Source: Eubacteriales bacterium (GTDB lineage Bacteria; Bacillota; Clostridia; Oscillospirales; CAG-272). From it: a stretch of 42,449 bases of DNA. The notes beneath the pieces were generated by a model. The model searched no databases, was not told the DNA's origin, and saw nothing but the letters and a program-made list of their open reading frames with translations. The position numbers and the translations under genes are program-made. The stretch covers positions 1-42,449 of the forward strand of contig DBGFNI010000116.1 of assembly GCA_048527645.1 (NCBI GenBank), given 5' to 3'. This document shows, one piece after another, positions 6,294-40,371 of the stretch. Positions within the stretch are counted from its first letter, which is position 1, and each line of letters starts with the position of its first letter.

Positions 6294-6356
6294 TGCTTCT
6301 TGACAAACTGCCTGCAATCATAGAATGTCATAGAAAGATTGAAAGAAGTGAACAGA

Positions 6357-17135: not shown

Positions 17136-17290
17136 AAATGTACCCTCATAATCATCACGGTAACCAACATTGTAGCACAGTGTGTCATTGGACACGCTGA
17201 TCCATCAAAATTTTAACAAAAAAAGGCAACCATTGTCAATCCCTTTCGGAAATAATTCATTGAATTTTTTAGTAATAAGATTTTGTGAAG

Positions 17291-17328
17291 AAAGCGAAAA
17301 GAGCCCGGAATCGGGCTCTTTTCGCTTT
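17291..17328 (-). terminator. intrinsic terminator of SLH-GH16 paralog 1
   Basis: 17-bp inverted repeat aaagcgaaaagagcccg / cgggctcttttcgcttt. On the minus strand the core GAGCCCG-AUUC-CGGGCUC is followed by UUUUCGCUUUCUU. Confidence 0.8.
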
Positions 17329-17341
17329 GTATTACATGTTG

Positions 17342-19015: not shown

Positions 19016-19107
19016 GAAAAATCCTCCTGATTCTATTCACAACGCCGAAAAGACGCCGTTATGGGTTTCACTCCGAGGCCAGCGCCCCGATGGCTTCCGT
19101 ATAATAT
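18228..19107 (-). repeat. copy A of a ~0.88-kb direct repeat (offset 1729 nt)
   Basis: Covers the 5' half of GH16 paralog 1, its upstream spacer and the first 40 nt (3' end) of paralog 2. It aligns by eye, nearly base for base, with 19957-20836 apart from scattered substitutions and one 11-nt indel (19048-19058 region, 'gccgaaaagac'). Confidence 0.85.
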
Positions 19108-20839: not shown

Positions 20840-23203
20840 TCAGCAGGAAATGCACGTGGATTTCAAATCCAGGCGTTTGATGATATCCTGCTGAATTGCA
20901 GGGGACAAATCCAGAAAATTGACAAAGGTGCCATGAATCCGCATGATATATACGCCGCTGGGCGCATACTTTTCCGGATCCGCCAAAACCTTGCGTAGAA
21001 TTTCCGGGGTTGTGACATTGACATACAGATAGAATGGGCTGACGCGCTCGGTGTTTTTCTCATTGAAAAACAGCGGCGCGATGACACGCTCATAAAATTG
21101 CAACCCCTTTTCTGCATCGGTTTTGCCGTTGAAATACTGTGGGTCAATGCCCAGATGAGAAGCATACCCGCCGCTCATCTTTTCAAACGGCAGCTCCATA
21201 TTGGAAAGCATGCGGAAGCCTAAACCGTTTTCTGCGCTACCCCACAGTGGATCGACGCCGTAATTCACCATTTCGCGGGACTTTCTGCCGTCCGGCGTTG
21301 CACCGACCCAGTATCCGTACAGCAGATGTGTGGACGGGCTGCTGAAATCAGGGCGAAAGGCATTGCCCAAATTGTTTTTGAGCGAGGCAACAATATCAGC
21401 CGCACGGTTTGTCACCTCCGCGCACTCGCGGTCAACGCCCTCGATGTGATTGCCAAATTTGTCTGCGTCCAACAAAAACTGATGCAGCTGCTCATACCCC
21501 TCAAAGTTCGCGCGCAGCGCGGGCAAGAGCTGATCTTGCCATTCCGGCTTCTCTGCAAGCAATCTGTCAATGGCAACAAGACTGTCCGCCACCACGGAAA
21601 CGCCGTGAATCAGGCATCCGCTGCCGTTATATTTCGTTCCCTGCCGCGTCACATCGCGCACATCAATGCCGCTCTCCACACCGCCCATGACACAGGAGAG
21701 AAACGGAACGCGCAAATGGGACAGCGCTGCGGTCGCACCGTTTGCCGATTTCGCCATCGACGCGGCAACGCGCTCCACATTGCGCCAGTATACCTGCCGC
21801 ACTGCATCCAGCGGCGCTTGCTCTAAGTCAAGCAATTTCTTTCCCGTGATCAGCGAGGTTCCGCCCGTCAGCGTCAACTCCAGAATCTTTGGGAGATTCA
21901 GCCAGCTGTTGGTCGTGTTCCCGTTGTCCTTTCCCATGATCAGCGGTTCCTGACAGCCGGCAACGGAGGTATCCTTGATGTCGGTCAGCGCCACGCCGCG
22001 TCTGCCCATGATGGAAAACAGCGAATCATCGTTGAACAGCGACGGGGTCAGCACACCGGCGCCGAAGAAGAAACGTCCCATCTCCTCATACAGCTTTTTG
22101 GGTGTGTTCTGATGCAGCTTCACTGACAGAATCGGCTGCGGCAGATTCATATCGTAATACGCATCCAAAAGGGCGTAACTGCATTCATTGGTCAAATCAC
22201 AGCCGTTCTCGTCTCTGCCGCCGATCAGCACATTCTGCGAAATCGCCCAGCTGCGATCTGCCACATTGAAGAACACCAGAAAATGACGGAACAGCGCGGC
22301 AGCCTCCTCGCGGGTCATTTCACCGCGGTACGGCTCAAAAATCCGATCTGCGTTGCCGACGGAGAAGGCAAAGGGATTGGGCGCCTGCTCCAGACACATG
22401 CACTGCCACAGCAGCAAAAAGGACTGAATTGCCTCAAACAGATTCTCCGCGCCGTGCGCAGGCACCTTTTCCAGCGTGTCTGCCAGCAGCTGCAACTGTG
22501 CGCGTCGCGCCTCCCCTGCCTGCTCCATCTGTGTCAGTGCAAGCTCGCGGTAGCGGCGTGCAAAGATCAGTGGCGCCTCCAGCGCCTTGGCGAAGGCTTC
22601 AAAGCCGCGCTTTTTCTGTGCATCCTGTTCGGTCTGCGCCTTTGCAAGCAGGTCATCTCGCGTCTTGCACACGCCGTTTTTCAAAAGCGGGCGCATGTCA
22701 GGAATCAGATGCCCCGTCACCTGCTCCACAAAATAAGCAACCTCTTCCGTATAGGGCTCTGCCTCTTCGTAAACCTTGGTCAGATTGGCAACATATGCGC
22801 TGCGGCGGCTCTTTTCCCGCACCGCGTCAATCCGCTCCTGCGTGATGGTTTCATCCGGTTCAATGTCGCCGAACACCGCAGTCGGATCGCAATATCCGCT
22901 GAACTCTTCCACCTTGAAGGAAGGATTAATCAGCGCGTAGCTCCGTGCAAACGCATCATCCTGTGTGCCGGCAAACACATGGTTCTCCGTCAGCTCCAGC
23001 GGCAGCATCTGCGCAATCTCGCACAGCGCTGCGGCAGCCGCATACTCTTCCCCTTTTTCCAGATATTTTTCCTTTGCGGGATAAAACGCCTCCTGCGCCA
23101 AAAACCATCCGTCCAGACGAGTCTTTGCACGCTCGTGGCGGAACAAACGCTTTGCCATTTGAATCAGTTCTTCTGTTTTGTATACCTTGTTCATCGTGAT
23201 CAT
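20840..23203 (-). CDS. glycyl radical enzyme, PFL2/glycerol-dehydratase-like class, substrate unknown
   Basis: About 787 aa. Catalytic loop 'VAGCQEP' (Cys-x-Glu, as in eliminase-type GREs). 'ATPDGRKS'. 'NLPKILELTLTGG'. C-terminal glycyl-radical segment 'YIMRIHGTFVNFLDLS'. The start is ambiguous: ATG 23203 or 23194, with SD AAGGAG just upstream. The ORF-track start 23317 lies inside the activase gene. Confidence 0.88.
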   Translation of the reverse strand: MITMNKVYKTEELIQMAKRLFRHERAKTRLDGWFLAQEAFYPAKEKYLEKGEEYAAAAALCEIAQMLPLELTENHVFAGTQDDAFARSYALINPSFKVEEFSGYCDPTAVFGDIEPDETITQERIDAVREKSRRSAYVANLTKVYEEAEPYTEEVAYFVEQVTGHLIPDMRPLLKNGVCKTRDDLLAKAQTEQDAQKKRGFEAFAKALEAPLIFARRYRELALTQMEQAGEARRAQLQLLADTLEKVPAHGAENLFEAIQSFLLLWQCMCLEQAPNPFAFSVGNADRIFEPYRGEMTREEAAALFRHFLVFFNVADRSWAISQNVLIGGRDENGCDLTNECSYALLDAYYDMNLPQPILSVKLHQNTPKKLYEEMGRFFFGAGVLTPSLFNDDSLFSIMGRRGVALTDIKDTSVAGCQEPLIMGKDNGNTTNSWLNLPKILELTLTGGTSLITGKKLLDLEQAPLDAVRQVYWRNVERVAASMAKSANGATAALSHLRVPFLSCVMGGVESGIDVRDVTRQGTKYNGSGCLIHGVSVVADSLVAIDRLLAEKPEWQDQLLPALRANFEGYEQLHQFLLDADKFGNHIEGVDRECAEVTNRAADIVASLKNNLGNAFRPDFSSPSTHLLYGYWVGATPDGRKSREMVNYGVDPLWGSAENGLGFRMLSNMELPFEKMSGGYASHLGIDPQYFNGKTDAEKGLQFYERVIAPLFFNEKNTERVSPFYLYVNVTTPEILRKVLADPEKYAPSGVYIMRIHGTFVNFLDLSPAIQQDIIKRLDLKSTCISC

Positions 23204-23211
23204 TGCTCCTT

Positions 23212-23913
23212 TTAGGTCTGTATCAATTGAATGCCGTCTGCGCGCAGCGCCTGTGCAAAGGCGTCTATCTGCGCCGCGGACACAAAACCGTCTGTGACGG
23301 TATACGGTTTTTCCCATTTGTCCCGTCCGTACTCATGATAGGGCAAGATTTCCACCTGCAAATGCGAACGGTTGCAGGTGTTGAAAAATGCAACGAAGGG
23401 TGTGGGATCCGTGTTGATATGATTGATCAGGGGGATGCGAACCAAAATATCCTTTCCGTTCTGTGTCAATTTGCGGATGTTTTCCCGGGTCTGCTCCCCA
23501 TCGTTTCCGGTATACCGGCGGTGCCGTTCCCCGTCCGCCAGCTTGCAGTCGACAATCAGATAATCAATCAGCGGTGCAAGCTCCGTCAGGCGCGGGTGCG
23601 AGCCGTTTGTTTCCAGGCAGGTGTGGATGCTTGCCTCGCGCAGCAATATCAGGCACTGTCGCAGCTGATCAAACTGCAGGGTTGCCTCTCCGCCGGTGAA
23701 GGTCACGCCCCCGCCGGAAAAAAACATCATTTCCGACCGCTTGGCAAGGTGCACAATTTCTTCCGGCGTCATTTCCCGCCGCTGTGTGCATATCTCCATG
23801 CTTTCGGGATTGGAGCACCAGGGACAGTGAAAATTGCAGCCCTGGGTGTGAATCACCAGACGGTTGCCCGGTCCATCCTGAGAAAAATTGAAGCCGGTTG
23901 TTAAGATATTCAT
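23212..23913 (-). CDS. glycyl-radical enzyme activating protein (radical SAM), short PflA-type
   Basis: 'DGPGNRLVIHTQGCNFHCPWCSNPES' carries the CX3CX2C cluster motif, and 'GVTFTGGEATL' is the SAM-binding motif. The protein is 233 aa with no additional CxxCxxCxxxC ferredoxin-type motifs. Confidence 0.9.
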   Translation of the reverse strand: MNILTTGFNFSQDGPGNRLVIHTQGCNFHCPWCSNPESMEICTQRREMTPEEIVHLAKRSEMMFFSGGGVTFTGGEATLQFDQLRQCLILLREASIHTCLETNGSHPRLTELAPLIDYLIVDCKLADGERHRRYTGNDGEQTRENIRKLTQNGKDILVRIPLINHINTDPTPFVAFFNTCNRSHLQVEILPYHEYGRDKWEKPYTVTDGFVSAAQIDAFAQALRADGIQLIQT

Positions 23914-25297: not shown

Positions 25298-27733
25298 TCA
25301 ACCCATTGTAACGCTCACCGCATAGGTTTTTCCCGTGCCGCTGCCGCGCAGGACATTGCCCGATACGGCTTCGCCGTCCACGGTCATATCGGCAACACCC
25401 TTGCAGACATGCGCCGGGTTTTTCACCGTGATGACATAGGTATCGCCGCGGAACTTTCTGGTCACCTCAAAGCCGTCCATTTCCGCCGGGATGCACGGGT
25501 CGACCTTCAGCCCGTCATATTCGGGCATGATGCCGAGAATGTAACGGGATACGTTATAAAACGTCCATGCCGCCGTTCCGGTCAGCCAGGAATTTTTTGC
25601 TTCGCCGAAATTGGGCGCGTCCCGCCCGGCAATCATCTGCGAATAGACATACGGCTCCGTGCGGTGAATTTCACTGATCTGCTCCAGATACGCGGGGCAG
25701 GTCTTGCGGTAAACCGCAAACGCCTCGTCGCCGCGTCCGATCATGGTTTCCGCAATGGAAATCCACGGGTTGTTATGACAGAAGATGCCGGCGTTTTCCT
25801 TATAGCCGGGCGGATAGGAGGAAATCTCTCCCAGTTCCTGATGATACCGGGTATATGCCGGCTGATTGAGCACAATCCCGTACTCGGTATCGAGATACCG
25901 GTGCACACTGTCCAGCGCCTGCTTTGCCTTGCCGTCGTCCAGACCGATGCCGCCGATCACACAGAAGCCCTGCGATTCGATGAAAATCTTGCCCTCCTCG
26001 CAAAATTTCGATCCGATCTTATTGCCGTATGCATCGTATGCGCGCAAAAACCACTCGCCGTCCCATCCGGCGCTGCACACCGCCTGCTTCATTTTTTCCG
26101 CCTCTTCGCGGGCATATGCCGCCTCCGCGTCAAGGCCGCTCTTTTCACAGAAATGAATGTAGTCGGGCGCAACCGCACAGAACATGCCCGCGATAAAGAC
26201 AGATTCCGCCACGCCGCTCTCAAAGTTTGCCGTGGTCTGGAAGGACTCACCGGGCGTTGCGGAGAAGCAGTTGAGATTCAAACAGTCGTTCCAGTCTGCT
26301 CTGCCGATCAGCGGCAGACCGTGCGGGCCGAGATTGTCCGGGACATGGTGAAAGCACTTTTTCAGATGGTCCATCATGCTGTCCGTGTGACTTGGGTCGC
26401 AGTCATACGCCACCTGCTCCTGCAAAATGCTGTAGTCGCCCGTCTCCTTGATATATGCCGCCACGCCGAAAATCAGCCAAAGCGGATCGTCATTGAAGCC
26501 GGAGCCGACATCCATATTTCCCTTTTTGGTCAGGGGCTGATACTGATGATATGCGGAGCCGTCCGCCATCAGCGTCGCCGCGATATCCAAAATCCGCTCT
26601 CTTGCACGCGCAGGGATCAGATGCACAAAGCCCAAAAGATCTTGCGAAGAATCGCGGAAGCCCATACCGCGTCCGATTCCGCTTTCAAAGTAAGAGGCGG
26701 AGCGCGACATGTTGAAGGTCACCATGCACTGATACTGATTCCAGGTGTTGACCATGCGGTTGAGTTTTTCATCTGCGGAGCGCACACTGTAGGTTGAGAG
26801 CAGATCGTTCCAGTATGCTTTCAGCTCGTCCAGCGCCGCATTGACCTGCTCGACCGTGCGGAATTTGGCAAGCATCGCCTCGGCAGGGGCTTTGTTGATG
26901 ACGTCCTGCGCCTCCCACTTCTGATCCTCGGGATTCTCGCAATAGCCCAGCACGAATATGTATTCCTTTTCCTCGCCGGGGGCAAGCGTCAGATTGATCT
27001 GGTGCGCACCAATAGGCGCCCAGCCGGACGCCACGGAATCCGTGCATTTCCCGCGGATCACGGCGTCGGGTGCGTCAAAGCCGTTGTACAAGCCGAGAAA
27101 GCTCTCACGGTCCGTATCAAAGCCGTCGACATCACAGTTCACACTGAAAACAGCATAGTGATTGCGCCGTTCGCGATATTCCGTTTTGTGATAAATCGTC
27201 GAGCCGATCACCTCGACCTCGCCGATGGAGAAGTTGCGCTGGAAGTTGGTCTGATCGTCCCAGGCGTTCCACAGGCAGAACTCCACAAAGGAAAACAGCT
27301 TTAACTCCTTTGTGTCCTGCGTTTCGTTTTTCAGGCGCAGACGGTGCACCTCGCACGGCGTTCCCACCGGCACAAAGGAGGTCTGCTCGGCGCGCACACC
27401 GCGCACCTTGGAGGCAATGACGGTATAGCCCAGACCGTGCCGGCAGGAATATGACTCATATTCCGCCTTGACCGGCATCCAACCCGGCGTGAAGATGCCC
27501 GCGCCGTCATTGATGTAAAAATATCTGCCGCCGCCGTCTGTGGGCACATTGTTGTAGCGGTAGCGGGTCAGACGCAGCATCCGCGCGTCCTTATAAAAGC
27601 AGTAGCCGCCGGAGGTGTTGGAGATCAGGGAGAAGAAGTCCTCCGAGCCGAGATAGTTGATCCAGGGATAGGGCGTGTCGGGGCGGGTGATGACATATTC
27701 CCGCGCCGCGTCGTCAAAATGGCCGAATTGCAT
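25298..27733 (-). CDS. cbp: cellobiose phosphorylase (GH94)
   Basis: 811 aa. Collinear with my recollection of Clostridium thermocellum Cbp along the whole length, for example '[17 protein letters not shown]', 'RYRYNNVP', 'NFQRNFS.GEVE', '[34 protein letters not shown]', '[15 protein letters not shown]', '[16 protein letters not shown]' and '[11 protein letters not shown]'. Confidence 0.92.
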
Positions 27734-28119: not shown

Positions 28120-28917
28120 ATGGAAGCGCAGATCCAACCGACTGAGAAAACGGCAGAAGTGCCCAAGGCGCGCCGCTATCGGCGTGCAACCCTTTTGGAT
28201 ACCTGCCGGGGCATCGCAGTTGTCAACATGATCTTTTATCACCTGCTGTATGATTATCAGGTGTTGTTCGGCAACAACCGCGCCTGGGACGAGCAGACCC
28301 GGGTGCGCCTGTGGCAGCAGCTGATCTGCTGCTCCTTTGTTCTGCTTTCCGGCTGGGTGTGGCGGCTGGGCAAGCGCAACAACCTGCGCCGCGGCGTGAT
28401 GCTGAATCTGCTCGGTTTCATCATCACCCTTATCACGCTGCTCCTTTTTCCGCAGGCGCCGATATGGTTCGGCATTTTGAACTTCATCGGCTGCGCGGTG
28501 CTGCTGATGATCCCGCTGGAAAAGCCGCTGCGGCGCATCCCGCGCCTTGTCGGCGCCGCGGTCAGTCTGCTGCTGTTCATCCTGACATATTCCCTGCCAA
28601 ACGGCGCTGTCGGTCTGCCCATGCTGCTCACGATCCGTCTGCCCCGTGCGCTGTACCGTTTTCCTGCGCTTGCTTTTCTGGGCTTTGCGCCGCAGAATTT
28701 CTTTTCCGCAGATTATTTCCCGCTCCTGCCGTGGTTTTTCCTCTATCTGTTCGGCTATTTTTTGGGCGGATTCTGTATGGCGCTGCCCGGCTTTGAGCAG
28801 ATCGCCCGCTGCAGGCTGCCGCCGTTTGACGCCGTCGGACGCTACAGTCTGTGGATTTATCTAGCGCACCAGCCGCTGTGCATGGCAATCTGCTGGATGC
28901 TGGTCAATCTCCCCTGA
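28120..28917 (+). CDS. DUF1624 / heparan-alpha-glucosaminide N-acetyltransferase-like membrane protein
   Basis: 'LLDTCRGIAVVNMIFYHLLYD' N-terminal signature of the DUF1624 (HGSNAT catalytic) family, followed by multiple TM helices. Confidence 0.7.
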   Translation: MEAQIQPTEKTAEVPKARRYRRATLLDTCRGIAVVNMIFYHLLYDYQVLFGNNRAWDEQTRVRLWQQLICCSFVLLSGWVWRLGKRNNLRRGVMLNLLGFIITLITLLLFPQAPIWFGILNFIGCAVLLMIPLEKPLRRIPRLVGAAVSLLLFILTYSLPNGAVGLPMLLTIRLPRALYRFPALAFLGFAPQNFFSADYFPLLPWFFLYLFGYFLGGFCMALPGFEQIARCRLPPFDAVGRYSLWIYLAHQPLCMAICWMLVNLP

Positions 28918-31927: not shown

Positions 31928-32094
31928 TTTATGCATTTTTTCGGTGAAAAGACAGTGTGCGTTCCGTTACAATATAAGCAGGAACCTCTCACACCCCCGA
32001 TCGGGCGGCGCGGGCAGCCGGTGTTCCGGCGCTGTCGCGTCACCGGCCGTCCGGACAGTTTATGCCGCCGCAAAGCTGCGGAAAGGAGACAAGC

Positions 32095-32802
32095 ATGCCT
32101 TATTCCATTTATATCGCCGATGACGAAAAAAACATCCGGGATCTGATCAAAAGCTTTTTGGAAAGCGACGGTTACCGCGTCTCGGAATTTGCAACCGGGG
32201 ACGAGCTGCTGGCGGCGTTCCGAGAGGAGCCGGCAGATCTTGTGATTCTGGACATCATGATGCCGGGCACCGACGGACTGAGCATTTGCCAGACGCTGCG
32301 CAAGGAAACGGATGTGCCGATCATCATGCTGACGGCACGGGATTCGGAATTTGACTATGTGCAGGGGATCACGCTGGGAAGCGACGATTATCTGACCAAG
32401 CCGTTCCGTCCCACGGTTTTGCTGATGCGTGTGCGCGCGCTGCTCAGAAGAAGCGAAATGGGCAGCAAAAAATCCGCTGATCCGAGCGGTGCAGATTGCC
32501 GGGTCGGCAACCTGATCTATTCCGCCGAGGCAAACGCCATTCTGTGCGGCAGCAGCGAGATCCCCTTCACCAAAATTGAGTTGAAGCTGCTCTCCTATAT
32601 GATGCAAAAGCCGGAAAAGGCCTATTCCCGTGAGGAACTGCTGGAAAAAATCTGGGGATTTGAAACGGAAGTGGAGACACGCGTCACCGACGAGACGCTG
32701 CGCCGCATCCGCAGAAAGCTCTCCCTTGCGAAAAGCAGCGTCAGCATTCAGACCGTTTGGGGATTCGGCTATCGGCTGCAAATCGCGGAGGATGCAAAAT
32801 GA
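32095..32802 (+). CDS. OmpR/PhoB-family response regulator
   Basis: Receiver 'IYIADDEKNIRDL...DLVILDIMMPGTDG...LTARD...DDYLTKPF'. Winged-helix 'LLEKIWGFE...RVTDETLRRIRRKL...IQTVWGFGYRL'. SD AAGGAGA before ATG 32095. Confidence 0.92.
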   Translation: MPYSIYIADDEKNIRDLIKSFLESDGYRVSEFATGDELLAAFREEPADLVILDIMMPGTDGLSICQTLRKETDVPIIMLTARDSEFDYVQGITLGSDDYLTKPFRPTVLLMRVRALLRRSEMGSKKSADPSGADCRVGNLIYSAEANAILCGSSEIPFTKIELKLLSYMMQKPEKAYSREELLEKIWGFETEVETRVTDETLRRIRRKLSLAKSSVSIQTVWGFGYRLQIAEDAK

Positions 32803-34034
32803 AACATATCAAAGGCAAAATCATCACCGTCATTTTGCTGTCCATCCTGCTCGTTTTTCTGACCTCCGTCGCGCTGGTCAACATCATGCTCCCGCACCGC
32901 TTTGAAAACGAAGCGAAACGCACGCTGGAATATGAAATTGACTATATCAACCGCTTCCCTTCCACCGCTGATCTGGAAAAGGACTTTGACGTTCTCGAAC
33001 AATATCTTGACAGCTATGAGGGCGGTTATTTCAGCGGCGACATTTCTTTCATCGACCTATCCGACAATTCCGGCTACAGCACAGGCTTTAACTCCAATGC
33101 CAATTTTGCGGAAATCGAGCTGCGCGACTACTGTGCCACGCATACCGTGAAAAACGAGACGTGTTACCGCTTGCGCACCAAACGCGGCTATTACATTTTT
33201 CTCCGATACGAGGAACAGCCCTTTGACGGTACAGAGACGACCGCGCCGATGCTCATGTATATCAATTTGCAGCCGATCATACAATACTTTCATTATCTCA
33301 ACCGGTTTTTCATCTTCGTGTTTCTCGGCATCGCCGTGGTCATGGGCGCCATCGGCTACCGTCTGGGCAAGATGATCGAGGACGCGCAGCAGACGCAAAG
33401 CCGCTTTTTTCAAAATTCGTCCCACGAGCTGAAAACGCCGCTGATGGCAATTCAGGGATACGCAGAGGGCATCCAGACCGGCGTCATCGACAGCCGCGTC
33501 GGCGCCGAGGTGATTTTGCAGGAAAGCGACCGCATGACGCGGCTGGTGGAGGAGCTGCTCTTTGTCTCCAAAATCGACTCGCACCGTCTGACGCTCAACT
33601 GCACGGGATGGGATGTGCGGGACATTCTGTATGACTGTCTGGAGTCCGTAACGCTGCTTCAGCAAAAGGAGAATATCCAGCTCATTCCCGACTTCACGGA
33701 GAGCAGCGTTGTGATCAGCTGCGACGAGGAGCAGCTGAGAAGAGCGTTTTTGAACATCCTGGTCAACGGTCTGCGGCACTGCAAAACCACGCTCACCGTT
33801 TCCTGCCAAGCAGAGAAAAATGACGTGGTCATTCGATTTGCAGACGACGGGGACGGCATTGCAGAGAAGGATCTGCCGCATATTTTCGACCGGTTCTATT
33901 CCGGGAGAAACGGGATCACCGGCATCGGTCTTGCACTCGCTTCGGAAATCGTGCATCTGCACCGGGGAACCATCACCGCACGCAACAGCGAAACCGGCGC
34001 CGTGTTTGAAATCCGCCTGCCGTTGGCAAAATGA
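32799..34034 (+). CDS. sensor histidine kinase (two TM, ~150-aa extracytoplasmic loop)
   Basis: H-box 'FFQNSSHELKTPLMAIQGYAEG'. N-box 'LNILVNGLRH'. G-boxes 'DDGDGIAEKDLPHIFDRFY' and 'GIGLALASEIV'. ATGA overlap with the regulator stop. SD GGAGGA. Confidence 0.9.
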   Translation: MKHIKGKIITVILLSILLVFLTSVALVNIMLPHRFENEAKRTLEYEIDYINRFPSTADLEKDFDVLEQYLDSYEGGYFSGDISFIDLSDNSGYSTGFNSNANFAEIELRDYCATHTVKNETCYRLRTKRGYYIFLRYEEQPFDGTETTAPMLMYINLQPIIQYFHYLNRFFIFVFLGIAVVMGAIGYRLGKMIEDAQQTQSRFFQNSSHELKTPLMAIQGYAEGIQTGVIDSRVGAEVILQESDRMTRLVEELLFVSKIDSHRLTLNCTGWDVRDILYDCLESVTLLQQKENIQLIPDFTESSVVISCDEEQLRRAFLNILVNGLRHCKTTLTVSCQAEKNDVVIRFADDGDGIAEKDLPHIFDRFYSGRNGITGIGLALASEIVHLHRGTITARNSETGAVFEIRLPLAK

Positions 34035-34054
34035 CACGGCGGCTCCCGATACAA

Positions 34055-34075
34055 TTTGACACTTTTATGACACTT
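34055..34075 (+). promoter_or_regulatory. direct-repeat box TTTGACAcTTTTATGACACTT upstream of the dlt-like operon
   Basis: Same box as 31907-31927, with one mismatch. The second half-site lies 49 nt upstream of TATAAT (34115-34120). An extra AATGACAC half-site sits at 34030-34037. Confidence 0.55.
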
Positions 34076-34087
34076 CTAACGCAGATT

Positions 34088-34115
34088 AACGGAGAAACCT
34101 TAAGGTTTCTCCGTT
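34088..34115. promoter_or_regulatory. perfect 28-nt palindrome AACGGAGAAACCTT|AAGGTTTCTCCGTT
   Basis: Both arms read as exact reverse complements. It occupies the -35 region and touches the first base of the TATAAT at 34115. It could be an operator, or a hairpin ending the kinase transcript. Confidence 0.5.
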
Positions 34116-34160
34116 ATAATATTATCAGAGATCGGTTGTTTTCGGGAAAGGGAGAATCAC

Positions 34161-35684
34161 ATGACCAAAAACGTATTATGCTATCTGGAAGCGTCCGCGG
34201 CAGCATTCCCGCAGAAGACCGCCGCGGCGGACGGCGCGGCAAGTCTTACCTTCTCCGACTTGCAGGAGCGCTGCGCCCGAATCGGCAGCGCCCTTGCCCG
34301 GGCCGGCGTCTGCCCCCGCGACGCGGTTGCAGTCTTCGCAGAGAAGAACACCGACGCCCTGTGCGCGATGCTGGGCGCCGTATATGCCGGCGGGTTCTAC
34401 TCGGTTTTCAGCACAGAACTGCCGCAACCCCGCCTGGAACAGATCGCGCAGGTTCTTTGCCCGAAGGTCATTGTCACCACCTGCGAGCTGCTGCAAACAG
34501 CGCAGCAGTATTTCCCGCACGCGGTGCTGTGCACCGTGGAGGCGCTTGCGCAGCAGGCGCCCGATCGCGCCCGGCTCGCTGCCATCCGCGGGCAGATGAT
34601 TGACACCGATCCGCTGTATGTCAACTTCACCTCCGGCTCCACAGGTACGCCGAAGGGGATTGTCGTCTCACACCGCAGTGTCATTGATTTTATCGGCTGC
34701 TTTACGGAGATTTTCGGGTTTTCCGCGCAGGATGTCATTGCCAATCAGGCGCCGTTTGATTTTGACGTATCGGTCAAGGACATCTATTCTGCAATGAAGA
34801 CCGGCGCCACGCTGCTGATTGTCCCGCGCCCGCTTTTCTCCGCGCCGGCTCAGCTGGTGGACTTTCTGTGCGCGCAGGGCGCGACCGCGATGATCTGGGC
34901 GGTCTCGGCGCTGTCGCTGCTTAGCACCTTTCACGCGCTGGATTACAAAACGCCGCAGAGCGTAAACAAAATCCTGTTCAGCGGCGAGGTCATGCCGTAC
35001 AAAGTGCTGCGGGATCTGCAGGCGCACCTGCCAAACGCGCTGTATGCAAATCTTTACGGTCCGACCGAAATCACCTGCAACTGTACCTATCATATTCTGC
35101 AAAAAGAGCGGGACTATTCCGCCGGCATCCCGATCGGCATCGCCTTTCCCAATGAGGATGTTTTTTTGCTCGATGCGGACAACCGTGCGCTGCGCGGTGC
35201 CGGCGAGACGGGAGAAATCTGCGTGCGCGGTTCGGCGCTGGCACTCGGCTATTACGCCGCCCCGGAGCAAACCGCTCGGCATTTTGTGCAAAATCCTCTG
35301 AACACGGCATACGCGGAGACCGTATATCGCACCGGGGATCTGGGCGCCTACAATGAAAACGGCGAGCTGATTTTCCGCGGGCGCAAGGATTTTCAAATCA
35401 AATATATGGGGCACAGGATCGAACTGGAGGAAATTGAGCGAGCTATGGCAGGCATCGCGGGCGTCGCAAGCTGCTGCTGCACGTTCGATGAAAAAAAGGA
35501 ACGGTTGTACGGCTTTTATGTCGGCAGCATCGACAAACAAACGCTGCACACGGTGATGAAGCAAAGCCTGCCCGCCTTTATGGTTCCCGGCTTTTTGCGC
35601 CGGGTGGAAGCGATGCCGCTGACCAAAAACGGAAAAATCGACCGAAAAATGCTATCGGAAAGCGCGGTGAAAAAGACATCTTGA
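34161..35684 (+). CDS. DltA-like amino-acid adenylation enzyme (carrier-protein ligase)
   Basis: 507 aa. AMP-binding core 'LYVNFTSGSTGTPKGIVVSH'. A4-type 'APFDFDVSVKDIY'. 'LYGPTE'. 'YRTGDLG'. 'GRKDFQIKYMGHRIELEEIE'. 'LPAFMVP...LTKNGKIDRK'. Confidence 0.85.
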   Translation: MTKNVLCYLEASAAAFPQKTAAADGAASLTFSDLQERCARIGSALARAGVCPRDAVAVFAEKNTDALCAMLGAVYAGGFYSVFSTELPQPRLEQIAQVLCPKVIVTTCELLQTAQQYFPHAVLCTVEALAQQAPDRARLAAIRGQMIDTDPLYVNFTSGSTGTPKGIVVSHRSVIDFIGCFTEIFGFSAQDVIANQAPFDFDVSVKDIYSAMKTGATLLIVPRPLFSAPAQLVDFLCAQGATAMIWAVSALSLLSTFHALDYKTPQSVNKILFSGEVMPYKVLRDLQAHLPNALYANLYGPTEITCNCTYHILQKERDYSAGIPIGIAFPNEDVFLLDADNRALRGAGETGEICVRGSALALGYYAAPEQTARHFVQNPLNTAYAETVYRTGDLGAYNENGELIFRGRKDFQIKYMGHRIELEEIERAMAGIAGVASCCCTFDEKKERLYGFYVGSIDKQTLHTVMKQSLPAFMVPGFLRRVEAMPLTKNGKIDRKMLSESAVKKTS

Positions 35685-36862
35685 ACAATATGACATATCC
35701 AACCGATTCCGCCTATTATCTCTTTGATCAGCAGGCGGTGACCAATCGTGTGGCGCAGCTGCGCGGTATGCTGCCACGTCAGATTTCTCTGTGCTACGCG
35801 GTCAAGGCAAACACATTTATCATCGACGCGCTGCGCGGAACAGTAGAACGCTTTGAAATCTGCTCGCCGGGGGAAGCGCAGATCTGCGACCGGCTCGGCG
35901 TGCCGCCGGAGCAGACGGTGATCTCCGGCGTGTACAAAACGCCGCAGGTGATCGAAAGCATGGTACGAAACGCCGCGGACAGAATTTACACCGTGGAATC
36001 CCTCACGCAGTTTGATCTGCTGCGAAGCCTGTCGGAATCATACCGGCGGCGCATCCCGGTTTTGCTGCGCCTGACCAACGGCAGTCAGTTCGGCATCAAC
36101 GAGGACGAGCTGGAGCAGCTCGTTGCCGCGCGGGAGCGCTGCGCCTATCTCGATTTGCGCGGCATCCAGTATTTTTCAGGCACGCAGAAAACCTCTCTCA
36201 AAAAACTGCAGCGCGAAATCGAGCATCTGGACCGGCTCTTGCTGCACCTGCAGCAAACCTACGGTTTCACGGCGCGGGAGCTGGAATACGGCCCGGGCCT
36301 TCCCGTGGCTTATTTTTCCGGCGACACGCTCGAAGAGGAAGCGCTGCTGTCCGGCTTTTCCGCGCTGCTCAACGGCATGTGCGCAAAGCCGAAGATCACG
36401 CTGGAGCTGGGACGCAGCATTGCCGCCTGCTGCGGACGGTACTACACCCATGTCGTTGACATCAAGCGCAACAACGGGCAAAACTATCTGCTGGTGGACG
36501 GCGGCATGCATCACATTGTTTACTTCGGGCAGCACATGGCGATGAAGCAGCCCTTTATCAGCGTTTGCGGAAAAGAGGCACAGCCGGCGACGGAAAGCTG
36601 GAATATCTGCGGCTCGCTATGCTCGATGAACGACATTCTGGCAAAGCAGGTGCCCCTGCCCGATATTCAGATCGGTGACACGCTTTGCTTTGAAAAAACA
36701 GGCGCATACTGTATGACGGAGGGCGTCTCCCTGTTTTTGAGCCGGGAGCTGCCGGCAGTCTATCTGCAAACGGCAGACGGCACAATCTGCCTGCGCCACA
36801 CGGTGCAGACCGCCCCTCTCAACACCCCGATTTTCAGCACAACCAATACAGAAAGGAACTGA
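35681..36862 (+). CDS. fold-type III PLP-dependent decarboxylase (Orn/DAP/Arg decarboxylase family)
   Basis: PLP-lysine motif 'LCYAVKANT'. 'YGPGLPV' phosphate loop. 'ELGRSIAA'. Active-site Cys region 'ICGSLCSMNDIL'. 'KTGAYCM'. TTG start 35681 overlaps the upstream stop (TTGA); ATG 35690 is an alternative. Confidence 0.85.
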   Translation: MNNMTYPTDSAYYLFDQQAVTNRVAQLRGMLPRQISLCYAVKANTFIIDALRGTVERFEICSPGEAQICDRLGVPPEQTVISGVYKTPQVIESMVRNAADRIYTVESLTQFDLLRSLSESYRRRIPVLLRLTNGSQFGINEDELEQLVAARERCAYLDLRGIQYFSGTQKTSLKKLQREIEHLDRLLLHLQQTYGFTARELEYGPGLPVAYFSGDTLEEEALLSGFSALLNGMCAKPKITLELGRSIAACCGRYYTHVVDIKRNNGQNYLLVDGGMHHIVYFGQHMAMKQPFISVCGKEAQPATESWNICGSLCSMNDILAKQVPLPDIQIGDTLCFEKTGAYCMTEGVSLFLSRELPAVYLQTADGTICLRHTVQTAPLNTPIFSTTNTERN

Positions 36863-36868
36863 CACATT

Positions 36869-37099
36869 ATGGAACAACTGCTTGCAATTTTAGAGGATAT
36901 TCAACCGGATATTGATTATACCGCCTGCGAAGGACTCATCGACGATCACCTGCTCGACTCGCTGTCGATCATTTCGCTTGTCGCAGAGCTGGAGGACGCG
37001 TTTGACATCACCATCCCCGCGGTGGAGGTCATCCCGTCGAATTTCAATTCCGCACAGGCAATGTGGAGCATGATTCAGCGTCTGCAAGAGGAGGAGTAA
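36869..37099 (+). CDS. DltC-like acyl/aminoacyl carrier protein
   Basis: 76 aa and acidic. Phosphopantetheine site 'DDHLLDSLSIISLVAELEDAF', with layout like D-alanyl carrier proteins. Confidence 0.85.
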   Translation: MEQLLAILEDIQPDIDYTACEGLIDDHLLDSLSIISLVAELEDAFDITIPAVEVIPSNFNSAQAMWSMIQRLQEEE

Positions 37100-37100
37100 C

Positions 37101-38735
37101 ATGCAGCTTTCCGCTCTGCTGTTTGCGGGAAAGTATGCGTCGCTGACCTCGTTTTTTTCCGTGGCGTATCTCGCCGTTTTCCTGCCCGTCTGTCTTCTTC
37201 TCTACTCGCTGATGCCGGGAAGGTGCAAAAAATACTTTCTGCTGCTTGCAAGCGCCGTATTTTATTGGCTGATCAGCGGAAGGCTGATTGTATATCTGGC
37301 ACTTTCCGTTCTGTCGGTGCATTATTTCGGGCTGTGGCTGGACCGTTTGCACATGCAGCGGGACGCACAGCTCAAAAGCGTTGAAAAGGAAAACCGGCGA
37401 AAATACAAAAAATTTTTTCAGCGCAGATGCCGCCTGGTTCTGCTCTTTGCCGTCGCGCTGCACATCGGCGCGCTGCTTGTGATCAAGTATTCCCCCTTCT
37501 TCACTTCAAACATCAACACCCTGCTGCGCGCACTGCACTGCTCGGTGCAGCTGGACATCCCGCGGTATCTGATGCCGATCGGCATTTCCTTCTTCACGTT
37601 GCAGGCGCTCTCTTATCTGATTGATGTTTACCGCGAAACGGAAAAGGCCGACGGCAACCCCTTCCGTCTGGCGCTCTTTCTCTCCTTTTTCCCGCAGATT
37701 ACGGAAGGGCCGATCTGCCGCTACCGTCAAACCGCGCCGCAGCTGTGGAGCGTGGGAAAAATCGAATATGCCAATCTCACCCTGGGGTTGCAGCGCATCC
37801 TGTTCGGCATGATGAAAAAGCTGGTTGTCGCCGATCGGCTCAATCCCCTGATTCAAGAGGTGTTTTCCAACTACCGTTCCTATGCGGGCGGCGTGATTGC
37901 CTTTGCGGCTGTCTGCTACACGATGCAGCTGTATATGGATTTTTCCGGCGCGATGGACGCGGTGAGCGGCACCGCGCAGATCTTCGGCATTGTCATGCCG
38001 GAGAACTTTCAGCGGCCGTTCTTCTCCCGCAGCATTTCGGAATTCTGGAAGCGCTGGCACATCACGCTGGGCGCGTGGTTTAAGGATTATATTTTCTATC
38101 CCGTGACCATGTCCTCCCCCTTGAAGCGCCTCACCGCTTCCGCGCGCAAAAAGCTCGGCAATCATTTCGGTCCCCTGCTCGCCGGCAGCATTGCGCTGTT
38201 CTGCGTGTGGCTGTGCAACGGGCTGTGGCACGGCGCCGCATGGAGCTACATATTCTTCGGCATGTACCATTTTGCACTGATTCTCGCCGGCAACGCCATC
38301 GCACCCGCCGTCAAAGCATGCAACCGCAAGTTGCACATCAATCCCGAAAGCCGCCCCTACCGGCTGCTGCAAATGCTGCGCACCGGTATCCTGGTGGTGA
38401 TCGGCGAGCTGTTCTTCCGTGCAGACGGCCTGCGCGCCGGACTCGCCATGTTTGGCAAAATGATCACCGATTTTCATCTTCCGTCGATCGACAACCGGCT
38501 CTTTTCCGCGCTGGGCGTCGACTGGATGGATCTTGTCATCGTCGGCGTCACGCTGCTGATCGTTTGGGTCGTCAGCCTGCTGAATGAAAAGGGGATCGTC
38601 GTCAGAGCGTCTCTGCGCAACGCGCCTGTCGTGCTGCGCTGGTGTGTGTTCTACGCGCTGATTCTGTATATTGTCATTTTCGGCGCATACGGTCCCGGAT
38701 ATGTCCCGGTTGACCCGATGTATGCGAATTTCTAA
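37101..38735 (+). CDS. MBOAT-family membrane O-acyltransferase (DltB/AlgI-like)
   Basis: 544 aa and polytopic. 'SISEFWKRWHITLGAWFKDYIFYP' and the catalytic-His region 'NGLWHGAAWSYIFFGMYH'. SD GAGGAGGAG. Confidence 0.9.
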   Translation: MQLSALLFAGKYASLTSFFSVAYLAVFLPVCLLLYSLMPGRCKKYFLLLASAVFYWLISGRLIVYLALSVLSVHYFGLWLDRLHMQRDAQLKSVEKENRRKYKKFFQRRCRLVLLFAVALHIGALLVIKYSPFFTSNINTLLRALHCSVQLDIPRYLMPIGISFFTLQALSYLIDVYRETEKADGNPFRLALFLSFFPQITEGPICRYRQTAPQLWSVGKIEYANLTLGLQRILFGMMKKLVVADRLNPLIQEVFSNYRSYAGGVIAFAAVCYTMQLYMDFSGAMDAVSGTAQIFGIVMPENFQRPFFSRSISEFWKRWHITLGAWFKDYIFYPVTMSSPLKRLTASARKKLGNHFGPLLAGSIALFCVWLCNGLWHGAAWSYIFFGMYHFALILAGNAIAPAVKACNRKLHINPESRPYRLLQMLRTGILVVIGELFFRADGLRAGLAMFGKMITDFHLPSIDNRLFSALGVDWMDLVIVGVTLLIVWVVSLLNEKGIVVRASLRNAPVVLRWCVFYALILYIVIFGAYGPGYVPVDPMYANF

Positions 38736-38746
38736 AGGAGGTTATT

Positions 38747-39712
38747 ATGCGATCGGCAGTCAAGCATGCGCTTTGCAGCACACTGTTCGTGCTCATTCTC
38801 GCCATTTTGCTGCTTGCGGTTTCCTGGGTTTTTCAGCCGAAGGGCAACGCTGCGCGGGACGGCATTCTCGATCAGTCGGCAAACGGCATTCTGGGAGAAG
38901 CGGAGCAGACCATCGACGTCTTGATCGTCGGAGACAGTGAGACATACAGTTCTTTTATTCCCCTGAAAATCTGGCAGGATTGCGGAATCACCTCCTATGT
39001 CTGTGCCACCCCGGCGCAAAAGCTCTATTATTCGTCTGAGTTTCTGCAAAAGGCCTTTGCGCAGCAAACGCCGAAGCTTGTCATCCTTGAAACGAACGCC
39101 GTCTTCCGCAATTTCACCTATGCGGATGTCGTCTTTCACAGTCTGGAACAGACCTTTTCCGTCTTTCGGTATCACAATCGCTGGAAATCTTTGCAGCCAA
39201 AGGATTTCACCCTGTATGTCAACAACACCAACACCGACAGCAGCAAAGGATATTCCTACAACACCGCCGTCAGCGCCGCGAATACCAAGGGCTATATGAA
39301 GCCAACGAAAAAGCAGCAGCGTATCTCGGCGAAAAATCAGCGGTACATTGAGGAGATGCAAGCCTTCTGTGAAGAAAACGGCGCGGCCTTTCTCCTGGTC
39401 AGCACCCCGAGCACCAAAAACTGGAATTATGCCCGGCACAACAGCATTGCCGCCCTTGCACAGCAGACGGGAATCCCATACATTGATATGAATCTGCTGC
39501 AAAAGGAAATCCCCATCGACTGGAAAACAGACACCCGCGACGGCGGCGATCATCTCAACCACGCCGGCGCCGTCAAGGTCACGGATTATCTGACGCAGTA
39601 TCTGCAGCAGACGGGAGCATTCACCGACAAGCGAGGCGATCCGCGCTACGCGGACTGGGAGGAAGCACTGCTCGCTTTCAACCGGGCAACCGCAGATTCC
39701 TTAAAGCCGTGA
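38747..39712 (+). CDS. membrane-anchored extracytoplasmic SGNH/DltD-like acyltransferase-esterase
   Basis: N-terminal TM 'LFVLILAILLLAVSWVF'. Block I 'VLIVGDSETYS'. Block V-like 'DGGDHLNHAG'. SD AAAGGAGG. Last gene of the cassette. Confidence 0.65.
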   Translation: MRSAVKHALCSTLFVLILAILLLAVSWVFQPKGNAARDGILDQSANGILGEAEQTIDVLIVGDSETYSSFIPLKIWQDCGITSYVCATPAQKLYYSSEFLQKAFAQQTPKLVILETNAVFRNFTYADVVFHSLEQTFSVFRYHNRWKSLQPKDFTLYVNNTNTDSSKGYSYNTAVSAANTKGYMKPTKKQQRISAKNQRYIEEMQAFCEENGAAFLLVSTPSTKNWNYARHNSIAALAQQTGIPYIDMNLLQKEIPIDWKTDTRDGGDHLNHAGAVKVTDYLTQYLQQTGAFTDKRGDPRYADWEEALLAFNRATADSLKP

Positions 39713-39796: not shown

Positions 39797-40371
39797 ATGT
39801 TGAACAAGAAGATTACAATTCGTCCGGAAGAACATAAAGATTATAAGAGTATTGTTTCTCTGATTCTGCGTTCGTTTCAGAAGGAACCGACTATTCTGAT
39901 GGATCCGATATTATTGCATTAGTTGAGGAAATCAGAGATTCGAAATATTATATTCCCGAATTGTCCTTTGTTGCACAATTAAATAACAATGTGGTAGGAC
40001 ACTTTTTGTTTTCAAAATTTCCGCTATCTCCTACGCAGGAAGGCGGACATGATCATGATACAAATTCCGGAATTGTTATGTTAGCACCTGTATCTGTTCA
40101 TGCCGATTATTTTCGCCAAGGAATCGGAACCGCTATGCTTAACATGGGAATTGAGAAGGTGAGAGAATCGGGCTATAAAGGAATAACCGTTGAAGGAAAT
40201 TACAACTTTTACAATCGAGTCGGATTTCGGACATCATCAGAATATAACATTTTCCCAACGAGTGGCTATCCAATGGAAGAACCCCGATGCATGATGTGTC
40301 AGGAAACATATCAAGGATCCTTGGACGGCATACACGGTTATATCGTTTATGACATGTATTTCAATGCATAA
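39797..40371 (+). pseudogene. YhbS-like GNAT N-acetyltransferase, disrupted by a 1-nt frameshift
   Basis: Frame A (from ATG 39797) reads 'MLNKKITIRPEEHKDYKSIVSLILRSFQKE' and stops at 39920. The continuation 'GTDYSDGSDIIALVEEIRDSKYYIPELSFVAQLNNNVVGHFLFSK...GIGTAMLN...GYKGITVEGN..YY.RVGF' is in another frame, open from 39847. The shift lies at about 39878-39890. The region is visibly AT-richer than its flanks. Confidence 0.7.

Follow-up and report, generated by a model that had tools for sequence, protein, structure and literature searches.

The 42,449-nt window analyzed here (contig DBGFNI010000116.1 of assembly GCA_048527645.1, from a Eubacteriales bacterium of the CAG-272 lineage) carries, at positions 34161-39712 of the plus strand, a cassette of five tightly packed, co-directional open reading frames (ORFs). 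They encode an amino-acid adenylase, a pyridoxal 5'-phosphate (PLP) decarboxylase, a carrier protein, an MBOAT (membrane-bound O-acyltransferase) and a protein of the SGNH fold. The cassette very probably specifies a carrier-dependent extracytoplasmic acylation system. Our favored reading, to which we give a probability of about 0.5, is a Dlt-related, carrier-dependent MBOAT-SGNH pathway by which an extracytoplasmic polymer of the envelope receives a different, tailored amino-acyl group. The components and the overall logic are of known kinds, and what is new is the combination of a Dlt-type donor side, a BtrK-like tailoring enzyme, a PatA-type fused acyl shuttle and an orphan SGNH family. Full-text literature searches returned no description of this five-gene architecture, and public records use generic names, calling the PLP protein "diaminopimelate decarboxylase" or "alanine racemase" and leaving the SGNH protein nameless.

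Gene content and conservation of the cassette

A first-pass annotation of the window had listed the same five genes at the same coordinates, and all ORFs were recovered on the plus strand, together with every motif quoted for them: TSGSTGTPKG and FDFDVS (adenylase), YAVKAN, ELGRS, CGSLCSMND and GAY (decarboxylase), LLDSLSII (carrier), FWKRWHITL and LWHG (MBOAT), and GDSETY and GDHLNH (SGNH protein). The successive junctions between ORFs 1 to 5 measure -4, +6, +1 and +11 nt. The features of the cassette are:

34161..35684, plus strand: stand-alone amino-acid adenylase, 507 aa, DltA-sized, with code DVKSLSLCNK
35681..36862, plus strand: fold-type III PLP decarboxylase, 393 aa (390 aa if started at ATG 35690), of the BtrK/TIGR03099 clade
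36869..37099, plus strand: carrier protein, 76 aa, predicted phosphopantetheine site Ser31
37101..38735, plus strand: MBOAT, 544 aa; the core is DltB-like, and two transmembrane helices lie in a C-terminal extension of 105 aa
38715..38732, plus strand: acyl-shuttle hexapeptide P-M-Y-A-N-F, MBOAT residues 539-544, with Tyr541
38747..39712, plus strand: N-terminally membrane-anchored SGNH-fold protein, 321 aa, predicted transferase

The decarboxylase ORF had been described as 393 aa long and overlapping the adenylase by 4 nt. The ORF is present, and the overlap is uncertain because translation may start at ATG 35690 instead of TTG 35681, giving 390 aa. Two near-identical public decarboxylases (P0001 and P0002) are 390 aa long, their gene calls beginning at the position that matches ATG 35690.

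The profile searches recommended by the first-pass annotation matched AMP-binding (221.6 bits) and AMP-binding_C in the adenylase, both halves of the Orn/DAP/Arg decarboxylase fold in the PLP protein (Orn_Arg_deC_N, 57.1 bits; Orn_DAP_Arg_deC, 55.6 bits), PP-binding in the carrier (23.8 bits, cutoff 20.8), where Ser31 is invariant among 64 orthologs, and the MBOAT domain in the fourth protein (64.3 bits). The equivalog models of the Dlt proteins all stay under their cutoffs: for DltA, TIGR01734 gives 275.9 versus 559.85 bits and NF003417 gives 278.2 versus 476; for DltC, PRK05087 gives 31.7 bits versus a cutoff of 68 and a second equivalog 17 versus 52.35; for DltB, TIGR04091 gives 164.7 bits versus 375 and spans MBOAT residues 108-439 only. 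The 76-aa protein is a carrier, though not demonstrably DltC. These scores, the extra PLP enzyme and the gene order A-PLP-C-B-D agree with the view that the cassette differs from a canonical dlt operon.

Conservation was assessed in a scan with one genome per species, which gave 67 loci with close decarboxylase relatives; 109 loci were retrieved. The order adenylase-decarboxylase-carrier-MBOAT-SGNH is kept, at 42-68% protein identity, in nearly all of these species-representative loci in which the contig is long enough, a recurrence far beyond chance. In this neighborhood survey all loci examined have the decarboxylase gene flanked by those of the adenylase and the carrier, so that the co-conservation on which the first-pass annotation had made its reading depend is borne out. 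The last gene stands upstream instead of downstream in two loci (L101 and L102) and is missing downstream of the cassette in six, and in L007 and L008, taken up below, no MBOAT-SGNH pair adjoins the first three genes. A profile scan found the decarboxylase family in at least 575 genomes, and its cultured carriers include Ruminococcus bromii ATCC 27255, Ruminococcoides intestinale and Pseudoflavonifractor sp. MSJ-30. Eight loci (L015, L016, L018, L019, L024, L026, L042 and L044) are near-identical and stem from a single "cleanbin" project. Their taxonomic labels (Bacteroidaceae, Muribaculaceae, Paludibacteraceae, Butyricicoccaceae and Phascolarctobacterium) contradict one another and are probably unreliable, and they were not used to claim a spread beyond Bacillota.

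The adenylase pocket and the carrier-linked decarboxylase

The adenylase passes the amino-acid adenylation domain model TIGR01733 (325.5 bits, cutoff 317.4), and the core residues Asp235 and Lys517, here D202 and K492, do not vary among the orthologs. Among its relatives of known structure, DltA (3FCC, 198 bits) does not outscore the A domains of nonribosomal peptide synthetases (NRPS) and the beta-aminoacyl-acyl carrier protein (ACP) synthetases (7DQ5, 214 bits); TIGR03098 matches it as well (198.5 bits, under cutoff). The ten Stachelhaus positions were taken by motif alignment, not from structure, and are numbered according to the GrsA scheme. They read D-V-K-S-L-S-L-C-N-K in the cassette enzyme versus D-L-M-S-M-C-T-V-A-K in DltA (3E7W, against which the Bacillus subtilis DltA sequence was checked residue by residue), the two agreeing at 3 of 10 positions. 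Cys269, which selects D-Ala in DltA, is replaced by Ser, and Met239 by Lys, which is residue 206 of the cassette enzyme. The complete code is identical in 55 of 60 orthologs, and the pattern DVK...[LVI]CN occurs in all 100 adenylases of a larger set whose overall identity is just 50-65%. A code that stays constant at this level of divergence points to a single, conserved substrate other than D-Ala.

The pocket extraction that the first-pass annotation had advised therefore separates the enzyme from DltA at 7 of 10 positions, and the invariant Lys239 suits an anionic substrate. The Glu code DAKDLGVVDK likewise has Lys at this position, and codes for small polar substrates, for instance Ser and Cys, typically contain L299, S301 and L322. 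The combination of the amine-binding Asp235 with Lys239 in a small pocket suggests a small amino acid bearing an additional carboxylate, and both residues together would suit an amino acid that is still undecarboxylated. We consider it probable that the transferred acyl group is other than D-alanine.

A paralogue of D-alanylation, in which the adenylase would load D-Ala and the PLP protein would act as a racemase-like supplier of it, is accordingly the least probable of the explanations that we weighed. It would account for the name "alanine racemase" in some public records, for the match of Ala_racemase_N to the PLP protein (39.4 bits) and for the presence of DltA, DltC and DltB models among the best NCBIfam matches of the respective proteins. 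It conflicts with the Dlt equivalog scores, all far under their cutoffs, and with the substitutions in the code, that of the D-Ala-selecting Cys269 included. The PLP protein, moreover, shows the C-terminal sheet domain of a decarboxylase together with its catalytic residues Cys and Tyr, has no Ala_racemase_C domain, and finds only decarboxylases among its structural matches.

The invariant residues of the PLP protein are those of a fold-type III decarboxylase: K42 (in YAVKAN), E242 and R245 (in E-L-G-R), C314, D318 and Y343 (in G-A-Y). It shares with LysA the fold, the PLP Lys and the E-x-G-R, Cys and G-A-Y motifs, at a structural TM score of ~0.8, and is set apart from it on several counts. 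The LysA model TIGR01048 gives 148.5 bits versus a cutoff of 297.9, and the best NCBIfam match is TIGR03099, "exosortase A system-associated" (175 bits, under cutoff). When the family profile was scored against relatives of solved structure, BtrK came first (163.6 bits), ahead of SbnH (148.5 bits) and the LysA enzymes (110-144 bits). BtrK, named in the Protein Data Bank (PDB) as an L-glutamyl-[BtrI acyl-carrier protein] decarboxylase, had been put forward as a precedent by the first-pass annotation and is thus the best solved sequence relative of the cassette enzyme. The LysA segment G-M-N-D-L-x-R-P-x-x-Y corresponds to D-G-G-M-H-H-I-V-Y-F-G-Q in the cassette enzyme and to D-G-G-M-H-H-H in BtrK. 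In LysA the Arg and Tyr of R-P-x-x-Y clamp the distal carboxylate of diaminopimelate (DAP); the cassette enzyme lacks this clamp and has DGGMHHIVYFGQ in its place.

The altered segment goes together with gene neighborhood. Among 80 loci from a genome scan with a BtrK-led alignment, the decarboxylases with DGGxH[HQ] adjoin a carrier and/or an adenylase gene in 7 of 7 cases, as against 0 of 73 for the other decarboxylases, 30 of which have a recognizable R-P-x-x-Y. A hidden Markov model of the window family likewise ranks the carrier-linked decarboxylases first (135-181 bits versus a median of 116 for the LysA type). In a simple neighbor-joining tree, built on a sample biased by the choice of outgroups for their BtrK similarity, the window family and the carrier-linked decarboxylases, BtrK included, form a clade with 100/100 bootstrap support in each of three outgroup subsamples. 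The tree agrees with the motif and neighborhood evidence, and by these sequence comparisons the cassette enzyme belongs to a carrier-associated decarboxylase clade, apart from LysA.

Two further peculiarities were seen in the alignment of the window decarboxylase (35681-36862). A 14-residue deletion relative to BtrK and LysA, at columns 146-160, precedes Q-F-G (RLTNGS--QFG versus RINPDKSFGSTAIKMGGVPRQFG), and the variable position of the motif G-x-x-x-[FYH]-x-G-[ST]-Q is Phe in the window family, Tyr in BtrK and His in LysA.

The first-pass annotation had proposed that a dicarboxylic or otherwise unusual amino acid may be loaded on the carrier and decarboxylated there, with supply of the free substrate by the PLP enzyme as the alternative. 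Loading before decarboxylation is favored because the pocket fits a second carboxylate, the decarboxylase falls in a carrier-associated clade and its gene lies between those of the adenylase and the carrier. The pocket, the kinship with BtrK, the missing LysA clamp and the clade speak for this proposal, and we regard decarboxylation on the carrier as somewhat the better bet; a beta-alanyl or gamma-aminobutyrate (GABA)-type product is put forward more tentatively.

The opposite order, in which the PLP enzyme would first act on a free amino acid in the cytoplasm (turning Asp into beta-Ala, Glu into GABA or DAP into Lys) and the adenylase would then load the product, with unchanged export and transfer, appears unlikely, though it is the most serious of the competing explanations. 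Most characterized members of the fold (LysA, ornithine decarboxylase and the D-Orn/Lys decarboxylase DOKDC) use free substrates, and gene clustering alone leaves the order of the reactions unfixed. Set against this are the absence of the distal-carboxylate clamp, the low score with the LysA model, the carriers that adjoin all members of the decarboxylase clade, and the invariant Lys239, a poor fit for a substrate whose sole extra group is a cationic amine. Furthermore, no fold-type III enzyme is known to decarboxylate free Asp or Glu.

Carrier-bound chemistry could also yield lysine, if the adenylase loaded meso-DAP via the carboxyl of its L-center and the distal carboxyl, at the D-center, were then removed to give lysyl-S-carrier and a lysylated polymer. 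After BtrK and SbnH the family is nearest to the DAP decarboxylases, loss of the distal clamp is expected if that carboxyl is engaged as the thioester, and Asp235 and Lys239 could together bind one amino-acid center. Yet the code residues L299, S301 and L322 point to a pocket that is shallow, in contrast to the Lys and Orn codes, and Lys239 is too close to the pocket entrance for a carboxylate seven carbons off. Direct activation of lysine would be simpler, and the route has no precedent; we judge it improbable.

Putative export proteins, upstream regulators and other genes in the window

In the PDB the MBOAT has sequence relatives among DltB entries only (8JEM and 6BUG, E ~8e-25). Its predicted catalytic residue His377, in G-L-W-H-G, aligns with G-F-W-H-G of DltB and is conserved; the DltB-like core also contains His320. 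The remaining 105 C-terminal residues form two transmembrane helices (476-494 and 510-528) and a tail ending in P-M-Y-A-N-F (539-544), and the pattern P[IMLV]Y[AV]x[FY] makes up the C-terminus in 92 of 93 complete MBOAT orthologs. In both PatA and DltX it is an FxYxxF hexapeptide that bears the acyl-Tyr intermediate (Anderson et al. 2025, PMC12148441). In Dlt this hexapeptide resides on the microprotein DltX, and in MBOATs of the PatA/AlgI type it is fused after two extra transmembrane helices, the C-terminus of Neisseria gonorrhoeae PatA reading FIYANF (PMC12148441). MBOAT-SGNH pathways other than Dlt have no carrier protein, since they use acyl-CoA (PMC12148441). For the cassette MBOAT an acyl-CoA donor is unlikely because the adenylase and carrier genes lie directly upstream. 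No separate dltX-type ORF, that is, one for a microprotein ending in FxYxxF, was found in the 126-nt gap 5' of the adenylase gene or within the cassette. The combination of a carrier protein, a fused motif and no dltX ORF is absent from PMC12148441.

The fifth protein had been annotated as "DltD/SGNH", and of the two names only the second holds. It has one N-terminal transmembrane helix. Its AlphaFold model (pLDDT, the predicted local distance difference test, 94.5) finds TesA/GDSL acylhydrolases as best Foldseek matches (probability 1.00, TMt up to 0.70), its Pfam result being limited to a sub-threshold match of Lipase_GDSL_2. Residues G62-D-S64-E, D265, G267, H269 and N271 are invariant in the family. 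A DltD identity was rejected: neither the protein nor its remote homologs match a DltD Pfam or NCBIfam model, DltD is outside the top 50 Foldseek matches, and no relation to the DltD family was detectable. None of 120 homologs has a Pfam domain, the family profile gave zero matches among PDB sequences even at E<=10, and when 1.84 billion representatives were searched exhaustively with a profile, the protein's own family alone was returned. This family, for which Pfam has no model, comprises 2,536 clusters at 50% identity with E<=1e-30. One member (P0242, 924 aa) is fused to DUF4300 (residues 368-607, 183.6 bits), with further sequence beyond, a fusion that may hint at an acceptor or partner protein.

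Clustering of the flanking ORFs in the 109 loci revealed just two that recur, both directly upstream and on the same strand: a response regulator of the OmpR type and a histidine kinase. A homologous regulator is present upstream in 37 of the 109 loci, with the kinase alongside in 34; counted over the 75 loci having enough upstream sequence, the regulator is found in 23. In the window the upstream features are:

32062..32802, plus strand: OmpR-family response regulator, 246 aa (Response_reg 107 bits, Trans_reg_C 72.3 bits)
32757..34034, plus strand: sensor histidine kinase, 425 aa (HisKA 56 bits, HATPase_c 76.6 bits)
34057..34073, plus strand: direct repeats TGACAC-N5-TGACAC with an 11-nt period (34057 and 34068), predicted regulator binding site
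34090..34120, plus strand: perfect 10-bp hairpin CGGAGAAACC-TTAA-GGTTTCTCCG at 34090-34113, followed by TATAAT at 34115-34120

The kinase has transmembrane segments at residues 22-40 and 181-199, with an extracytoplasmic loop of ~140 aa between them. The repeat boxes were found by eye in the sequence and by comparison across loci. A third TGACAC lies at 34032-34037, at the kinase stop codon, and TTTGTGACA repeats with an 11-bp period occur in the kinase-adenylase gap of L005, L006, L022, L068-L072 (the R. bromii group) and L083 (four copies). In the "cleanbin" loci this gap is ~70-80 nt long and has no repeat boxes. In the window the 126-nt gap also holds GGGAGAA, a putative ribosome-binding site. 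The hairpin and TATAAT are possibly a kinase terminator overlapping the cassette promoter; a scan with promoter and terminator consensus sequences returned nothing specific for a cassette promoter. The dlt operon is controlled by the two-component system GraRS, and by analogy the TGACA repeats are putative sites for the adjoining OmpR-type regulator.

Elsewhere in the window, the first-pass annotation had taken SLH-anchored enzymes as a sign that a secondary cell-wall polymer exists in the organism. Three consecutive SLH-domain proteins are indeed encoded at 14742-20744 on the minus strand, of which one contains a cellulase domain of glycoside hydrolase family 5 (GH5) and another gives a weak GH16 match, so the organism has SLH-anchored surface enzymes. 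The link between the cassette and such a polymer is weak: the SLH proteins are encoded >13 kb away on the other strand and are unlinked to the cassette in other genomes, and no polysaccharide genes are conserved beside the cassette there. Directly 3' of the cassette, a GNAT acetyltransferase gene (39799-40371) is seemingly split by a frameshift into an N-terminal piece, which opens with ATG 39799 and meets a stop near 39921, and a Pfam-matching part in another frame (39961-40371). It could be a pseudogene or reflect a sequencing error, and is not conserved beside the cassette in other genomes. The window further encodes a Wzy_C/O-antigen-ligase-like membrane protein (1527-3440), a GH25 muramidase of 1,222 aa with five Listeria-Bacteroides repeats (6339-10007), a PFL-like glycyl-radical enzyme (20840-23317), a GH94 cellobiose/cellodextrin phosphorylase (25298-27733) and an HGSNAT/Acyl_transf_3-type membrane acyltransferase (28120-28917).

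Relation to known systems and proposed pathway

With Dlt the cassette shares a stand-alone adenylase of ~500 aa, a small phosphopantetheinyl carrier, a DltB-related MBOAT and a membrane-anchored partner of the SGNH fold, as well as the proposed logic, in which an acyl group would pass from the carrier thioester via the MBOAT His and the Tyr of the shuttle to the SGNH Ser and the polymer. It differs from Dlt in gene order (A-PLP-C-B-D versus X-A-B-C-D), in the extra PLP decarboxylase, in having no DltX, the shuttle being fused to the MBOAT, and in an SGNH protein that is not detectably DltD. The systems PatA/PatB, AlgI/AlgJ/AlgX and the WssH type resemble it in the two extra C-terminal transmembrane helices of the MBOAT, the terminal hexapeptide (PMYANF versus FIYANF) and a separate SGNH partner. 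The first residue of the motif is Pro in the cassette MBOAT, whereas FxYxxF has Phe. PatA/AlgI-type systems take their acyl group from acetyl-CoA without a carrier (PMC12148441), while the cassette has its own adenylase and carrier and an MBOAT core nearest to DltB.

On the donor side, BtrI/BtrJ/BtrK (butirosin) and VinN/VinL/VinO or FlvN (macrolactams) serve to decarboxylate Glu, 3-methyl-Asp or Asp on a carrier, and in them, too, a fold-type III PLP decarboxylase is grouped with a stand-alone carrier and an enzyme that activates the carboxylate. BtrK shares DGGMHH and its clade with the cassette decarboxylase, though the two are only ~26% identical. The activating enzyme BtrJ is an ATP-grasp enzyme, unlike the NRPS/DltA-type adenylase of the cassette. 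VinN, VinL and VinO turn 3-methyl-Asp into 3-aminoisobutyryl-ACP, the thioester being needed before decarboxylation, and FlvN is the Asp-specific counterpart (PMC11284099). In the butirosin and macrolactam systems the product goes to an aminoglycoside or a polyketide synthase; in the cassette it would presumably go to the MBOAT-SGNH pair.

A further parallel is given by the families TIGR03098 and TIGR03099, which both match the cassette, adenylase and decarboxylase respectively, though under their cutoffs. Four of the seven DGGxH[HQ] loci mentioned above (L113-L116, from Margulisiibacteriota, Termititenax and Desulfosarcina) contain overlapping carrier-ligase-decarboxylase trios. In L114 (3239-7082) the cutoffs of TIGR03098 and PP-binding are passed by the ligase (627.9 versus 592.35 bits) and the carrier, respectively, and the decarboxylase, at 404 bits, is TIGR03099-like. 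These trios differ from the cassette in their order (C-A-PLP), in a ligase that is only 25-29% identical to the cassette adenylase and has a different pocket, and in having no MBOAT or SGNH gene. They look like a second, uncharacterized use of the same tailoring module. A GT4 glycosyltransferase gene lies near the trio of L114, and the trios of L113-L116 adjoin a gene for an unannotated protein of ~303 aa, whose counterpart in L115 (2300-6218) gives a weak GNAT match. The first-pass reading was incomplete in that it contained neither this trio nor the VinN/VinL/VinO and FlvN systems, the MBOAT shuttle motif, or the two-component system with its repeats.

Several points weigh against a pathway that decarboxylates an amino acid on the carrier and passes it to an envelope polymer, besides the motif-aligned pocket and the BtrK-biased tree already mentioned. 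The adenylase code is nearest, at 6 of 10 positions, to those of alpha-linked Ser. With the canonical Asp235 kept and a Ser-like code, the enzyme may activate the alpha-carboxyl, and Asp or Glu tethered in that way could not undergo alpha-decarboxylation. The preference of the family profile for BtrK over LysA is modest, ~20 bits. In Foldseek searches the AlphaFold model of the decarboxylase (pLDDT 87.9) matches LysA, BtrK, SbnH and the D-Orn/Lys decarboxylase alike (E 1e-28 to 1e-26), and with scores so equal the fold cannot separate BtrK from LysA. The Asp-His spacing in block V of the SGNH protein is D-x-x-x-H instead of the canonical D-x-x-H, and flank clustering in the 109 loci gave no recurrent genes for polysaccharide, polymer or acceptor synthesis beside the cassette. 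Finally, in two loci (L007 and L008) the A-PLP-C trio is followed by housekeeping genes, without an adjoining MBOAT-SGNH pair; unless these are misassemblies, the trio and the export pair are separable.

Both loci are from metagenome-assembled genomes. The genes after the trio encode a threonyl-tRNA synthetase, an AsnRS/AspRS-type synthetase and an aspartate aminotransferase in L007 (7400-13164), and DnaJ, DnaK, GrpE and HrcA in L008 (3200-8951). The Asp-related neighbors (AspRS in the window and the aminotransferase in L007) were dismissed as coincidence, being non-recurrent.

The separable trio would suit an explanation in which it makes a soluble or lipid-linked small molecule or feeds some other acceptor, the MBOAT-SGNH pair perhaps acylating a lipid or a protein. 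The different partners of the trio in other phyla and the part that BtrK and VinO play in antibiotic pathways lend themselves to the same idea. We rate it as quite improbable: genes for condensation, ketosynthase, thioesterase or reductase functions are lacking, the conserved partners are the MBOAT-SGNH pair and the two-component system only, and characterized bacterial MBOAT-SGNH pairs all acylate envelope polymers (PMC12148441).

From gene content, conservation, motifs, folds and clade membership, we infer the following chemical steps, substrate and acceptor for the favored carrier-dependent pathway. The adenylase would activate a small acidic amino acid, with Asp as the likeliest candidate and Glu as the next, and load it on the phosphopantetheine of carrier Ser31, probably via the side-chain carboxyl. 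The BtrK/VinO-like enzyme would then strip the free alpha-carboxyl on the carrier, leaving a beta-alanyl or GABA-type omega-aminoacyl thioester. The DltB-like MBOAT, by way of His377, would carry the acyl group across the membrane onto its own Tyr541, P-x-Y-A-x-F replacing DltX. The membrane-anchored SGNH protein would accept it on Ser64 and esterify a wall or membrane glycopolymer, adding positive charge. In about one third of the genomes the adjoining OmpR-type two-component system would control expression via the 11-bp-spaced TGACA repeats.

D-alanylation is the standard means by which Gram-positive bacteria tune their surface charge, cationic-peptide resistance and dealings with the host. 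With a second, chemically distinct acylation system that depends on a carrier, these organisms would have an unrecognized surface chemistry, which could affect immune recognition, antimicrobial-peptide resistance and colonization, and the system is present in hundreds of species of gut and rumen Clostridia, among them the keystone starch degrader R. bromii. In its full form, which we offer tentatively and at slightly less than even odds, the proposal is that these Clostridia, R. bromii included, place on an envelope glycopolymer an omega-aminoacyl ester that is made on a DltC-like carrier from Asp or Glu and exported by a self-shuttling MBOAT. If true, such an ester would be a novel way of making the surface cationic; it would withstand base better than D-alanyl esters do, and a dedicated two-component sensor would turn it on. 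By joining a carrier donor to a fused shuttle, the cassette bridges Dlt (carrier donor, separate DltX) and PatA/AlgI (acyl-CoA donor, fused shuttle), which are kept apart as two classes in the literature; it would be the first MBOAT-SGNH pathway of this kind, possibly showing Dlt in its ancestral state. PLP decarboxylation on a carrier, known from the butirosin and macrolactam antibiotic pathways, would also be extended into cell-envelope biogenesis.

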